Positions 6,970 to 49,446 of a stretch of DNA of 64,000 bases are shown here, in pieces. Where the stretch lies: assembly GCF_049060185.1 (NCBI RefSeq), contig NZ_JBMEQO010000002.1. One strand, 5' to 3'. The notes beneath the pieces were generated by a model that worked only from the letters and a program-made list of their open reading frames with translations, was not told the DNA's origin and made no database searches. The DNA is from Nannocystis pusilla (GTDB lineage Bacteria; Myxococcota_A; Polyangia; Nannocystales; Nannocystaceae). The position numbers were made by a program, and so were the translations under genes. Every line of letters begins with the position of its first letter. Positions within the stretch are counted from its first letter, which is position 1.

Positions 6970-7965
6970 GTGGCCTCCCGCAAGCCCGCGCCCGCCGTCA
7001 CGGAGCCGACCATCCGTGTCCGCCGGATCCACCGCCGCGACCTCAACAAGGTGTGGGAGTTTCTCAAGCGCGTGTTCCGCTCGGTCAACCGCGAGACCGT
7101 CGAGTACCAGCGCCCCCGCACCAAGACGCGATTCCTCGAGATCTACGAGGAGGAGGGCATCGAGCAGCTGCTGTTCGAGATCCACGAGGGCGACGCCCCG
7201 GTGATCGTCGGCTACGCCGAGTGCGCCTACGAGGTCATCGGCTCCGACAATTGGATCAACGAGCGCTACTTCGAGAGCCGCGACATGCGCCCGCTGTTCG
7301 TCGAGGAGATCGCCATCCACCCCGACTTCCAGGGCCGCGGGATCGGCAGCTTCGTCATCGAGCAGCTCGAGCACCTCGCCCGCGTGCGCGGCTGCACTCA
7401 CCTCGTCCTCGAGGTCGCCGCCAACAACAAGCGCGCGCTCCAGTTCTACCGCGCCCGCAGCTTCTCCCAGATCGACGCCGCCATCTTCCTGGCCAAGAAG
7501 GTCGTCAGCGAGCCCGAGCTGCTGCCGCCCCGCACCCTCCGCAACAGCGGCCTCGAGGCGGCCCCGTCCGACCCGGCCGAGGCCGGGCCCGAGGCCGAGG
7601 AGGGCTCCGAGGACATGTCCGAAGCGACAGGTGCGGAAGCACCTGACCTCGAGGACATGCCCGAAGAGGCAGACGAGCCCGAGCCCGAACCAGCCCCCGG
7701 CCAAGCCCGCCCGCGCCCGCCGCTCGCGCCCCCGCAAGGCCTGACGGCACGACCCGGACGCCGAGCGCCTCGCTCGTCCGTCGCGCCGTGTCGCCGATCG
7801 CCGTCACCACGCGGCCGTCCGGCCCTGTCGCCGATCGCCGTCACCACGCGGCCGTCCGGCCCTGTCGCCGATCGCCGTCACCACGCGGCCGTCCGGCCGT
7901 GTCGCCGATCGCCGTCACCACGCGGCCGTCCGGCTGCCTGTGCGTCGCGTCCGCCGCTGTGTTAG
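6970..7965 (+). CDS. GNAT family N-acetyltransferase (catalytic domain about 6970-7560) followed by an acidic or disordered tail that reads through repeat DNA.
   Basis: Motifs IAIHPDFQGRGIGSFVIEQLEHLARVRGCTHLVLEVAANNKRALQFYRARSF form a GNAT acetyl-CoA fold. The tail EEGSEDMSEATGAEAPDLEDMPEEADEPEPEP and its downstream part are translations of the 14-bp array and the 37-bp tandem repeat. Confidence 0.7.
   Translation: MASRKPAPAVTEPTIRVRRIHRRDLNKVWEFLKRVFRSVNRETVEYQRPRTKTRFLEIYEEEGIEQLLFEIHEGDAPVIVGYAECAYEVIGSDNWINERYFESRDMRPLFVEEIAIHPDFQGRGIGSFVIEQLEHLARVRGCTHLVLEVAANNKRALQFYRARSFSQIDAAIFLAKKVVSEPELLPPRTLRNSGLEAAPSDPAEAGPEAEEGSEDMSEATGAEAPDLEDMPEEADEPEPEPAPGQARPRPPLAPPQGLTARPGRRAPRSSVAPCRRSPSPRGRPALSPIAVTTRPSGPVADRRHHAAVRPCRRSPSPRGRPAACASRPPLC
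7611..7665. repeat. 14-bp-phased array lying in-frame inside the GNAT tail.
   Basis: The four units are ggaCATGtccgaag, cgaCAGGtgcggaa, gcaCCTGacctcga and ggaCATGcccgaag. The period is exactly 14 bp, and 42 bp encodes the 14-aa stretch EDMSEATGAEAPDL. Confidence 0.7.
7789..7934. repeat. Perfect tandem direct repeat of a 37-bp unit TGTCGCCGATCGCCGTCACCACGCGGCCGTCCGGCCC, four copies.
   Basis: The copies lie at 7789-7825, 7826-7862, 7863-7899 (with a single c-to-g difference at the last base) and 7900-7934. The repeat sits just upstream of the ABC ATPase start at 7976. Because 37 is not a multiple of 3, each copy shifts the reading frame. Confidence 0.9.
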
Positions 7966-7975
7966 CGTCCGCCGC

Positions 7976-8781
7976 GTGACCGAGCCGGTCCCAGCCCCGC
8001 ACATCGAAGCCCGCGGCCTCGGCGTGCAGTTCGCGGGCGGCGTGCAGGCTCTCAGCGGCCTCGACCTCGTCGTCCGCCGCGGCGAGCTGCTCGCCCTCAT
8101 CGGCCCCTCGGGCTGCGGCAAGTCGACCTTCCTGCGCGTCGCCGCCGGCCTCGCCCCCGCCAGCGCGGGCACCATCACCGTCGCCGGCGAGGCCCCGAGC
8201 GGGCCCGGGCGCGCCGTGCGGTCGCCTTCGTGTTTCAGGATCCGACCCTGCTCCCGTGGCGCAGCCTGCACGCCAACGTCCGCCTCCCGCTCGAGCTGGC
8301 GCGCGCCCCGATCGCCGAGCAGAACACCGCCGCCGACGCCGCCCTCGCGCTCGTCGGCCTGTCGGAGTTCGCCGCCGCCCCGCCGACCGCGCTCTCGGGC
8401 GGCATGAAGATGCGGGCCTCCCTGGCCCGCGCCCTCGTCACCCGGCCCGAGCTGCTCCTGCTCGACGAGCCGTTCGGCGCCCTCGACGAGCTCACGCGCG
8501 AGCGCCTCAACGACGAGCTGCTGCGCCTGTGGGAGCGCGACCGCTTCACCGCCCTGGCCGTCACCCACAGCGTCGCCGAGGCGGTCTTGCTCGGCGACCG
8601 CGTCGTCGTCCTCTCCGGCCGCCCCGGCCGCGTGGTCGCCGACATCCCGATCGCCCTGCCGCGCCCGCGCCGCGCCGCCCTGATCGGCAGCCCCGAGTTC
8701 GCGGCGATCGCCGCCGACGTCCGCGCCCATCTGCGCGCCGCCGCTCCGCCTGACCCTTCGGACCTGCCCGCTCGGACCTGA
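7976..8781 (+). CDS. ABC transporter ATP-binding protein of the SsuB/TauB/NrtD-like family, with a frame break near 8215.
   Basis: The GTG start reads VTEPV. Walker A GPSGCGKST, the Q-loop and LLPW motif VAFVFQDPTLLPW (which lies in the other frame), signature LSGGMKMRASLARAL and Walker B LLLLDEPFGALD are all present. The break sits at gggcccgggcgcgccgtgcggtc. Confidence 0.85.
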
Positions 8782-8845
8782 CCTCTCCGCCCTGTCCCTT
8801 CGCACCTGTCTCTTCGCACAAGTCCCTCGGGACAGCTCGCCCGGC
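8761..8845. repeat. 14-bp-phased array of the CCTG/TGTCC variant, six units.
   Basis: The units are gaCCTGcccgctcg, gaCCTGacctctcc, gcCCTGtcccttcg, caCCTGtctcttcg, cacaaGTCCctcgg and gaCAGCtcgcccgg. The cores sit at 8763, 8777, 8791 and 8805. Confidence 0.65.
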
Positions 8846-8880
8846 CCCGCCCCCGCTGCAGGTCGGGCCTCCCTCCTCCC

Positions 8881-47186: not shown

Positions 47187-47189
47187 CCG

Positions 47190-47275
47190 GCGAAGCGGAT
47201 GTCCGAACGAACATGTTTGATAGGACATGCCTGTTCGGACCTTTTAAAGGACATGTCCCGAATGCATCGGGCTGA
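47190..47275. repeat. 13/14-bp-phased array of six units, the lowest-GC variant seen.
   Basis: The sequence is ggATGTCCgaacgaaCATGTTTgataggaCATGCCTgttcggaCCTTTTaaaggaCATGTCCcgaatgCATC. Confidence 0.7.
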
Positions 47276-47596
47276 GGCCGACGCCGCCGCGGGCTCGAGT
47301 GCCTCGGCTCGTAGCCGGCGCTGAGGCTCTCTCGCCTGACGCCGGCGCCGTCTTTGACTCCTCCGATCGGTCGGCGCCACCTTCTCCTGTCCTTGAGGCC
47401 ATGTCATCCCGCATCGCCGGCGCGTCTCCGAGCTCGTTCGGCAACTAGCGCGCCGCCCCCCGTCGCCGAGCCTCCTCAGACCTGTCTCAGCGCACTGCGG
47501 CCGCTGCTCGCGGCACTTTGGCCCCGCCTCCCCGCCCCGCCTCAGCGCACCGCGGCCCCCGCTCGCAGCACTTTGGCCCCGCCTCCCCGCCCTGTC

Positions 47597-49446
47597 TCAG
47601 CGTACCTCGGCCGCCACCCGCAGCACGCCCGGCTGCGGGTAACTGATCGCCAGATCGGCCAGCTCCAGCCCCCGTCGCGCAGCGCTCGCGTGCCGTCGCG
47701 CAAGAGCGCCCGCACCTCGATCCCTGGCAGACCGGCTGCGCCCGGGGCCAGCAGCGCGTCGAGCCTGGCCTCGACGTCGCCCATCTCGAGCAGCGCGGCG
47801 AAGCACGGCCACAGCGCTCCCGCGCGCGCACGACAGGCGCAGGCGGTCGATCGTCCCCGCCAGCGCCAGCCGCCCGCGCCCCGCGTCATACTGCGGGCGC
47901 ACGACCCCGCGCCCTGCCACCAGCACCTCGCCGGGGTCCTCGCCCTCGCTGCCGGTCAGCCCCAGCCGCAGCCCCGCGACCGTCAGGGCCCAGCCCTCAC
48001 CTGTCCCCGGGGACAGCGACGGCGGCAGCCGGACCTCGATCTCCGCCAGGCCGAGCGTCGTCCACTCGCCGAGCGCCTCGTCGACCCGCTCGACCCACTG
48101 CGCCCGCCCCATCAAATCGCCGAGCAGCCCGTTGGCCGTCCACGCGTCGAGCAGCGCGTCGACGGTGTCGAGGCTCAGCTCGACCTCCGCGTCGGCAGTC
48201 GGCGCCACCGGCCGCAGCGGCGGCAGCTCGATCCGTGCCGCGCCGGCCCGGGATCGCCGCGAGCCGCGTGCGCACCCGGCTCGCCTCCTGGCTGGTCTTC
48301 GGGTCAGGTTTATCGGGCCGTACGGACAGGTGCGCCGCGATCCCGCCCGACTCGATGGCCACCGCGCAGAACGCCAGAGTCGCCCGCGAGCGCGGCTCGC
48401 CGACGATCAGCTCGGCGCGCTCGGGGATCAGCGGGATCGCGCTGGCCACCGCCAGGGCCGCGGTCAGCTGCGTCTCGACCTCCTGCCGCGCACGCCGATC
48501 GATGTAGCCGTCGGCCAGCGCGTAGCCGGCCAGCGCCCCGAGCGGCGCCAGCGGCCCCGTCACGAGCGCCCCGAGCCCCGCCGCGCCGAGCGTCGCCCGC
48601 GTGCGCAGCGTCCCCGTGAACTCGACCGGCCCGAGCGAGGCCAGGCGCACGCCGAGCTGACGCGGCCCGGCCACCCGCACCTCGAGCGCGCCGGACACCG
48701 CGATCCGGTGCTCGCCGGCCAGCGCCACGCGGAACCACAGCGCGTCGCCCCGCAGCGTCACGCTCGCCTCCTCCAGCGTCGTCCCCGGCCCGAGCAGCCC
48801 GATCGAGGGCGCCGCCGCCAGCAGCTTGTCGCGCAGCGGCGGCAGCACCAGCCGATCGATCGCCCTCGCCGCCACCCGCACCCCGCGCCGCAGCCCGGCG
48901 AGTCGTCGTAGCGCGCGCGGAACGGCCCGACCAGCGCCGCGTCGGTCGCCACCTCGGCGCCGCCCTGCCGCGGCAGCTCGACCTCGATCAGCCGCAGCCC
49001 CGGCGCGTCACCCAGCGCGACCGAGAGTGTCCCATCGGACATGTTTTCGAGGGCCTGTCCCTCGGCACTGCGCTGCCCGTCGCTCGCGTCCCTGGCTGCT
49101 CCATCGGGCATGTCCTCTTGAACATGCCCTGAAGGACCGGCGCCATGTGCCCGGCGTTCGACCGCCTCCCCGCTCCAGACATGTCCTTTTGCACATGTCC
49201 TTCAGCCCGGACCTCCCCGTCGACCCGCACCACAGCCCGCGCCGCCAGCTCCGGCGGGACCACGCGCCCCGTCCAGCGCCCGTCGGCCGCCGGCGCGTGC
49301 GGGCTTGCGACCTCGACGCGGAACGGCTCGACCGATGCCGCCTCGATCAAAGCCCCGCGCCCGGCGGCCAGCAGCGCGCCCGCCAGCGCCAGGCCGGCCA
49401 GGCCGGCCATCGACGCGAGCCGCCACTTATCCTCCGCGAGCGCCAT
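47597..49446 (-). CDS. Hypothetical membrane-anchored protein, possibly AsmA/TamB-like, reconstructed over several frames with a large array embedded near the N-terminus.
   Basis: The N-terminal TM is MALAEDKWRLASMAGLAGLALAGALLAAG..FRVEVASP. After the array comes MSDGTLSVALGDAPGLRLIEVELPRQ. Further segments ALEVRVAGPRQLGVRLASLGPVEFTGTLRTRATL and DTVDALLDAWTANGLLGDLMGRAQWVERVDE follow. Confidence 0.4.
49025..49215. repeat. The largest array, about 190 bp with 12 or more 14-bp units, embedded in the minus-strand hypothetical ORF.
   Basis: The cores sit at 49028, 49040, 49054, 49090, 49109, 49124, 49144, 49179 and 49193. Examples are gtGTCCCatcggaCATGttttcgagggCCTGTCCctcg, gggCATGTCCtcttgaaCATGCCCtgaagg and cagaCATGTCCttttgcaCATGTCCttc. 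Confidence 0.7.

Follow-up and report, generated by a model that had tools for sequence, protein, structure and literature searches.

The 64,000-nt stretch of Nannocystis pusilla DNA analyzed here (contig NZ_JBMEQO010000002.1 of assembly GCF_049060185.1; hereafter the window) carries many arrays of a 14-bp palindromic repeat. The reading that we favor, with a probability of about 0.7, is that these arrays belong to a family resembling the repetitive extragenic palindromes (REPs), mostly located 3' of genes, with a minority of copies translated as protein linkers; that the open reading frames (ORFs) running through the arrays follow from composition; and that the false gene fusions seen at some of them are assembly errors. 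An earlier note on this DNA had singled out arrays at six places and read them as sitting in frame inside or between genes. Motif arrays were found at all six, far above chance, and comparison with clean relatives places five of them in frame within genes, namely those of a GNAT acetyltransferase, an extracytoplasmic function (ECF) sigma factor, a SNF2 helicase (two sites) and a 602-aa hypothetical protein. The sixth, next to the purine-nucleoside phosphorylase gene pnp, is intergenic.

A strictly periodic family of 14-bp palindromic units

The unit is made of a 10-bp palindrome, GGRCATGYCC or the weaker variant ACCTGTCC, and a 4-nt spacer (TTCG, GAAG, GAAA and CCGG among others), repeated head to tail. 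Exact palindromes number 11 in the window against 0.4 expected from dinucleotide shuffles, and copies with at most one mismatch number 44 against 7.1; 17 clusters of at least two units are present where shuffles give 1.4. Pairs of CATG spaced by exactly 14 bp occur 23 times (0.42 expected), with additional peaks at 28 and 42 bp, and there are 10 in-register CATG triples (0 expected), one of which, at 16775, is the array in the sigma gene. These counts show that the arrays form a real family with a strict 14-bp period. The number of units per array is variable, from 1.5 to about 13.

Neighboring units would pair with each other to form very stable hairpins, several alternative ones within each array. 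When folded and compared with shuffles, the intergenic arrays gave z scores between −3.4 and −7.8 and the coding array of the GNAT gene gave −5.0, whereas the SNF2 and sigma copies folded no better than their shuffles (z = −0.4 for sigma and −1.7 for the SNF2 array at 20790). No T-run follows the stems, and a terminator scan returned three canonical sites against 2.7 expected, one of them at an array. A search of the whole window with Rfam at the gathering threshold matched no family to the arrays; its sole match was a tRNA gene at 34481-34551 on the minus strand.

Outside the genus the repeat disappears. In 1.35 Mb of DNA from other bacteria, among them Sorangium, Enhygromyxa and other Myxococcota, the motif is found at background level only, and within this sample the family is so far specific to Nannocystis.

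Reading frames of the window and the relatives used to judge them

The window has 72-75% G+C and contains 171 ORFs of 150 aa or more that overlap one another, so that an open frame means little by itself. We used two clean, syntenic relatives: N. pusilla GCA_020073745 (locus L081, ~91% DNA identity) and Nannocystis sp. RBIL2 (GCA_026626745, loci L082 and L087, 95-97% DNA identity). Along 36.5 kb compared with RBIL2, coding sequence holds 46 indels whose length is not a multiple of three, and 41 of these are deletions in the window. The deletions are mostly of a single base in C or G runs, and almost all fall in C/G homopolymers or GC dinucleotide runs. Counted as 1-2-nt deletions relative to clean Nannocystis, frameshifts occur at ~1.2 per kb of coding sequence; examples lie at 23968, 20867, 20714, 28958, 32321, 26653 and 26496.

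The genes affected include pth, rpsR, pnp and those for H+-PPase, SNF2, the sigma factor and NMT1, all frameshifted with respect to L081. The dnaB gene carries deletions that are not multiples of three plus an in-frame stop, and its Pfam match to DnaB_C is split between frames, as are those of NMT1 and of the kinase (at profile position 181). Likewise, a plot by frame of the G+C content at third codon positions (GC3) displays many changes of frame on the same strand. Since essential genes (dnaB, rpsR and pth) are shifted that are otherwise 87-99% identical, and always by homopolymer deletions, the frameshifts indicate errors of the assembly rather than biological change. The reading frames of the window are thus untrustworthy, and every site was judged against the clean relatives. 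On these alignments, the fusion of pnp with a small ORF, the extension of the GNAT frame to 7965, a 530-aa sigma protein and the broken SNF2 and 602-aa genes are artefacts of homopolymer deletions. Artefacts have entered the public annotation of the window genome as a GNAT protein of 331 aa, the 530-aa sigma protein and a fragment of 294 aa.

The arrays are concentrated downstream of genes

At the three clean loci, non-coding DNA holds 3.76 copies of the motif per kb and coding sequence 0.36, a difference of about 10-fold. Arrays occupy six of the seven convergent intergenic regions, 6 of 25 tandem ones and none of the six divergent ones. They usually begin 0-36 nt past a stop codon, and sometimes the stop lies within the array. 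The unit is present on both strands, and array positions are conserved between strains.

Some single palindromic units overlap start codons, at 52899-52908 of the window (L087 12812-12821) and at L081 2718-2727. The ATG within GGACATGTCC is the start of a Ppx-type gene, 9 nt after a tolB-like stop, and the H+-PPase gene begins with the ATG of GGACATGCCG, so that start codons, like stops, can come from the units.

A hypervariable array within the 602-aa protein

In RBIL2 the hypothetical protein is encoded by a single ORF of 602 aa, in which the array accounts for a stretch of 56 aa (168 nt, or 12 × 14). The 90%-identity cluster of this protein has seven members with six distinct sequences, from several Nannocystis assemblies. 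These orthologues are 91-95% identical and have internal gaps at the array segment alone, which is 16, 35, 47, 57 or 63 aa long. Further away, the segment comprises about three units (17 aa) in a 74%-identical protein from a metagenome-assembled genome, and 9 aa without any array in a relative of 55% identity. Strains with flanks of 97-99% identity have very different array interiors, and the segment encoded by the array is the least conserved part of the protein. The dipeptides GH and DM recur in every array-bearing orthologue.

The window copy is spread over three reading frames, and public annotation retains just a fragment (294 aa) of the protein. As assembled, the frame of the array stops at 48988 and the protein body lies in other frames, so the earlier description of this array as in frame does not hold for the window itself. 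The copy shifts frame inside the array; after one base is restored beside a G run, its reading matches a 620-aa N. pusilla allele. The intact orthologues show that this array is coding, in frame and hypervariable in length.

The earlier note had reasoned that three units make 42 bp, or 14 aa, and had proposed to look for orthologues shorter by such steps. The arithmetic is found in the 42-nt core spacing of the GNAT array and in the 168 nt of RBIL2, but not in the lengths of the 602-aa orthologues. There, insertions in steps of 14 aa (42 nt) were tested and not borne out. What stands is that the differences between these proteins fall precisely at the array and never break the frame.

Pfam returned no match for the 602-aa protein, for the 453-aa and 353-aa proteins or for the small ORF at 23642-23884, and the label "AsmA-like" is just the UniRef name of one orthologue. 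Downstream of the 602-aa gene there is a 55-bp tandem repeat (47486-47626, 2.6 copies, 87% matches), which falls in a stretch that does not align to RBIL2 (window 47262-47578).

The GNAT tail and the sigma linker

The GNAT orthologues of five other assemblies are intact and 259-261 aa long, against the 331 aa annotated for the window genome. A 5-nt deletion at about 7692 puts the shared stop out of frame in the window, and the resulting ORF crosses a 37-bp tandem repeat and continues as far as 7965. In the orthologues the tail reads EDMSE(T/A)TG(A/S)EAPDLEDMPEE and is followed by a conserved basic C-terminus, KPARARRSRPRKA. The sequence GAGGACATGTCCGAA is identical in four lineages of 75-97% identity, all of which carry the second GACATG core at precisely 42 nt downstream, and the whole array is near-identical in RBIL2 at the DNA level. 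By this comparison the GNAT array is coding and in frame. The repeat crossed by the extended frame (7778-7934, 4.2 copies, 96% matches) lies between the GNAT and ABC-transporter genes and is single-copy in RBIL2; it has no relation to the 14-bp family and represents a polymorphism of copy number in intergenic DNA.

The array in the sigma gene had been described as sitting at the junction of separate ECF sigma and anti-sigma genes. We rejected a pair of sigma and anti-sigma genes, each with its own stop and start, because both clean relatives carry the fusion as one ORF, of 401 aa and 400 aa. The protein comprises sigma regions 2 and 4 (Pfam Sigma70_r2 and r4_2), a transmembrane helix, a Pro-rich linker and a conserved C-terminal helical domain of ~80 aa. 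The fused architecture is family-wide, at 39-93% identity, with dozens of representatives of ~390-480 aa at 39-62% identity. The site is kept in RBIL2 and in part in N. pusilla GCA_020073745. Its ~14 array-coded aa sit in the variable linker, where distant fused homologues show a gap of 12 aa. The sigma array is accordingly placed by the relatives in frame and within the coding sequence of one old gene.

Upstream of the sigma gene, a 453-aa hypothetical gene contains a tandem repeat of ~45-48 bp (15205-15325; L082 17846-17977). Its units hold GACCTGTCC..GGACATCC, resembling two 14-bp units, and between shared flanks the repeat stretch measures 132 nt in RBIL2 against 81 nt in the window. Possibly this is another array that codes in frame.

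The SNF2 sites

Relatives encode the SNF2 helicase as a single protein of 978-1061 aa. The window copy lacks one nucleotide on each side of the first array, at 20867 and at 20714, which distributes the gene over three frames, so that around 20792-20817 the claim of an open frame without stops fails for the DNA as assembled. A reading of this array as intergenic, between a 551-aa ORF and a SNF2 ORF, had been drawn from the ORFs and the GC3 plot; it was dropped in view of the single protein of the relatives and the two deletions. Both sites are in frame and conserved in L081, as FETG(A/S)SG(Q/H)VS and VSEGTGPE. The linker that holds the first is variable in distant orthologues, and a tblastn alignment with Sorangium shows a gap opposite the second. 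A contig scan with SNF2 yielded relatives of 62-72% identity with no synteny past the gene, which are informative for the length of SNF2 only. Judged by the intact relatives, both SNF2 sites are coding and in frame.

The pnp array is intergenic

At pnp, a 1-nt deletion at 23968 (GGG to GG) takes the stop codon out of frame and gives rise to an apparent fusion with the downstream ORF. All the homologues listed cover just ~70% of the resulting 374-aa ORF; nearly all are of ~274 aa and all but one of ~270-290 aa. When one G is restored, their C-terminus, LLRGLLAQ(S/P)P..*, is recovered and the stop overlaps the first unit of the array. The same order, stop and then array, is found in L081. We therefore read the pnp array as intergenic and the fusion as an artefact of assembly. 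The continuation of the frame through this array, like that of GNAT to 7965, is due only to the deletion beside it (the latter at about 7692). The possibility raised by the earlier note itself, that indels had removed real stops, thus applies to pnp and to the 3' extension of GNAT and not to the other sites.

Between the pnp array and the next gene, a minus-strand segment of ~210 nt (23642-23884) has a strong GC3 coding signal, and its start may be an ATG inside the array. N. pusilla GCA_020073745 lacks the segment at this position, and Pfam finds no match in it.

Open frames follow from composition and the constraint lies in the DNA

Twenty-six arrays, taken from the window and the three clean loci, were compared with random segments of equal length from the same DNA. 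On average 4.88 of the six frames are open per array, against 5.10 ± 0.15 in the random segments, and the arrays hold 33 stops against 28.2 ± 5.5. Open frames are not evidence of selection across the family, contrary to one suggestion of the earlier note. Its other suggestion, a fortuitous property of the unit, is supported: idealized consensus arrays are open in all six frames and only spacers such as TGAA bring stops. Stops are scarce because of the unit sequence together with a G+C content of 72-75%, at which almost any 50-bp stretch is open. Tolerated linker insertions, also suggested, agree with the location of the coding pieces in poorly conserved linkers and tails and with distant homologues that lack them.

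The coding copies retain the signature of the repeat. Their GC3 is 0.55-0.70, against 0.95-0.98 elsewhere in the same genes (0.55 in the array and 0.95 in the remainder of the 602-aa gene), and the rare A/T-ending codons GAA, ACA and GGT are retained in them across lineages. The residue after Asp-Met varies among Ser, Pro and Leu, matching the TCC, CCC and CTC of the motif. As 14 is 2 modulo 3, a single array reads its unit in rotating frames, as GH(V/A), DM(S/P/L) and TCP. Predicted array-coded peptides include EDMSETTGAEAPDLEDMPEE and EGHVQKDMS. The low GC3, the kept rare codons, the match of Ser, Pro and Leu to the motif and the rotating frames indicate that the nucleic-acid element is primary and the peptide a passenger. 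They show the constraint on the coding copies to act at the DNA level and not at the protein level.

Table 1. Arrays of the 14-bp repeat and the genes that hold or adjoin them, in window coordinates (z, folding score against shuffles).
Feature	Position	Strand	z	Details
Array straddling the 3' end and stop of a 916-aa protein kinase gene, convergent neighbor	4816-4914		−7.4	
True GNAT coding sequence	6970-7744	+		From RBIL2 alignment; TGA 7742-7744 common to both
Four-unit array in the acidic C-terminal tail of GNAT acetyltransferase	7611-7666	+		Encodes EDMSEATGAEAPDLEDMPEE; exact cores at 7611 and 7653
Intergenic array, convergent genes on either side	9788-9856		−7.8	
One gene, ECF sigma fused to a transmembrane helix and C-terminal domain	16140-17347	+		Broken by a 1-nt deletion near 17040
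Three degenerate units in the linker between sigma region 4 and the transmembrane helix	16772-16813	+		Three CATG, 14 bp apart; encodes ADMLAKTWSMSHVA
Intergenic array between convergent FG-GAP and SNF2 genes	19076-19145		−3.4	
SNF2 helicase gene, 5' end approximate	19156-22090	−		Three frames in the window
Two units in a variable SNF2 helicase linker	20790-20817	−		Encodes ETGASGQVS; Tandem Repeats Finder period 14, 1.9 copies, 92% matches
About 1.5 units in the N-terminal half of SNF2	21704-21727	−		Encodes VSEGTGPE
Five-unit intergenic array starting at the pnp stop	23873-23942	.	−7.2	
True purine-nucleoside phosphorylase (pnp) coding sequence	23940-24763	−		Stop TGA 23940-23942
602-aa-type hypothetical coding sequence	47597-49410	−		tblastn with the RBIL2 protein; frame changes near 49145, 48890 and 48245
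~190-bp array between the N-terminal transmembrane/first-strand region and the protein body	49025-49215	−		
Intergenic array, convergent genes on either side	60115-60190		−5.4	

Discussion

Our results are best explained by a REP-like family of 14-bp units whose members mostly follow genes and are occasionally translated. The arrays most likely work as transcribed hairpins at 3' ends that would protect or terminate transcripts; alternatively, they could be sites for some binding protein. The copies within genes would be translated passenger insertions in disordered linkers and tails, where purifying selection would retain only those that preserve the frame and contain no stop. Gain and loss of units, probably through slippage or mediated by hairpins, may then give rise to the hypervariable in-frame length polymorphism of the 602-aa protein.

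Several points weigh against this explanation. The mechanism of insertion and expansion rests on orthologue comparison only, and whole-unit slippage alone is insufficient, as the 602-aa orthologues differ in length by amounts other than multiples of 14 aa. The placement statistics come from ~62 kb of clean sequence with gene calls, at three loci and not from whole genomes. The terminator scan did not exceed its expectation (3 against 2.7) and the arrays belong to no Rfam family. Finally, the SNF2 and sigma copies are short and degenerate, and only the 14-bp register and the core sequence assign them to the family.

A stronger version, which we consider unlikely, sees the family in active, genus-specific expansion, decorating 3' ends, writing fast-changing linkers and supplying stops and starts, possibly with a slippage-prone switch at the 602-aa locus. 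If it were true, the arrays would be a measurable driver of protein-length evolution.

The switch can also be taken as the main explanation, with the 602-aa array acting as a contingency locus in which gain or loss of one unit toggles the gene. The unit length of 2 modulo 3 would suit such a programmed switch, and so would the array's location near the 5' end of a gene that encodes a membrane-anchored protein and adjoins a MlaE-type transporter. As in simple-sequence contingency loci, the phase-variable tandem repeats of coding sequence, the copy number of the array in this envelope-associated protein differs between strains; its interior varies strongly between nearly identical flanks, and the array of the window, as assembled, loses the frame. 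However, the six distinct sequences from clean assemblies all preserve the frame and do not differ by whole units, and the shift in the window amounts to one missing base by a G run, relative to the 620-aa allele, in an error-prone assembly. The palindrome is moreover shared with hundreds of extragenic sites, and we regard a programmed switch as improbable.

It is similarly hard to credit that the coding copies are regulatory, forming RNA hairpins that pause ribosomes or mark processing or termination between domains. The strong folding of the GNAT array (z = −5.0), with synonymous sites conserved in four lineages, is in line with this possibility, as is the location of arrays at domain boundaries, between region 4 and the transmembrane helix in the sigma protein and between the transmembrane segment and the body in the 602-aa protein. 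But the SNF2 and sigma copies fold no better than shuffles, and the 602-aa array is highly variable in sequence and length, unlike a tuned structure.

Selection could instead act on the peptide, with EDMSE or GHV.KDMS as a functional motif (for example a metal-binding one of His, Asp, Met and Cys) and the palindromy of the DNA incidental. EDMSE...DMPEE is indeed kept in GNAT tails at 75-97% identity, and GH and DM are found in all array-bearing 602-aa orthologues. This is very improbable for a unit that is 10-fold denser in non-coding DNA, on both strands, and that a single array reads in all three frames. The residue after DM follows the DNA motif, GC3 falls to 0.55-0.70, rare codons are identical across lineages with synonymous sites conserved, and the array segment is the least conserved one in the 602-aa protein.

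Least credible of all is that no array is coding and that indels which removed stops lie behind every in-frame or fused reading: this fits pnp (the deletion at 23968, the conserved TGA at the array start and the 274-aa homologues), the GNAT ORF past 7744 and the rate of ~1.2 frameshifting deletions per kb in the window, but it is refuted for five of the six sites by ORFs that pass intact through the arrays in clean assemblies (GNAT of 259-261 aa in five, sigma of 400-401 aa, SNF2 of 978 aa and six distinct 602-aa-type sequences).

The favored reading, of extragenic palindromes partly absorbed into proteins, combines known patterns. REP elements of the GTAG and CGTC types (Di Nocera et al., 2013) are short, high-copy palindromes, often clustered and located mainly downstream of coding regions (PMC3733652). 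They lie between convergent or unidirectional genes, sometimes give a stop codon and occasionally fall wholly inside ORFs, with clusters that code for tens of amino acids (PMC3733652). The Nannocystis arrays resemble them in lying downstream of ORFs (6/7 convergent and 6/25 tandem regions), in the occasional supply of stops and in the presence of some copies within ORFs. They differ in architecture, since the REP unit is an imperfect palindrome of 20-40 bp and ours a near-perfect one of 10 bp with a strict 14-bp period, and in the lack of both the GTAG and the CGTC tag. REPs are also associated with a RAYT (Y1) transposase gene, an association that is not known for the present family.

Rickettsia palindromic elements (RPEs) are in-frame palindromic insertions in unrelated genes that are translated and compatible with protein function (PMC10969869). 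The arrays are similar in this respect, since clean relatives have intact GNAT, ECF sigma, SNF2 and 602-aa proteins whose genes contain them in frame. Nevertheless, an RPE is a single piece of ~100-150 bp that encodes a conserved peptide in AT-rich reduced genomes, whereas here arrays of variable numbers of 14-bp units are read in rotating frames, encode peptides that vary from 16 to 63 aa at one locus and are mostly extragenic, in a genome of 12-13 Mb and 72% G+C. RPEs were reportedly first described by Ogata et al. in 2000.

With intrinsic terminators the arrays share G+C-rich hairpins right after stop codons, especially between convergent genes, but they have no T-run after the stems and offer several alternative hairpins in place of one. 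The family thus joins REP-like 3' placement to RPE-like incorporation into proteins, and its architecture fails the defining features of both. A full-text literature search for the core sequence mainly returned papers on p53 sites, and none on bacterial repeats among the matches listed.

Two consequences follow. Frame-based inference from this N. pusilla assembly is unsafe, and wrong protein lengths are already in public databases. In addition, the arrays constitute an abundant repeat family of unusual architecture, tandem 10-bp palindromes with a 14-bp period, for which the literature search found no bacterial description. They appear to illustrate, in a giant G+C-rich genome, how extragenic palindromic DNA can be taken up into proteins as hypervariable linkers that keep the frame, with one protein varying from 16 to 63 aa at one site among members of a single genus. 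The family is also one in which the spread of the element, its role at gene ends and its contribution to protein-length variation can be tested.

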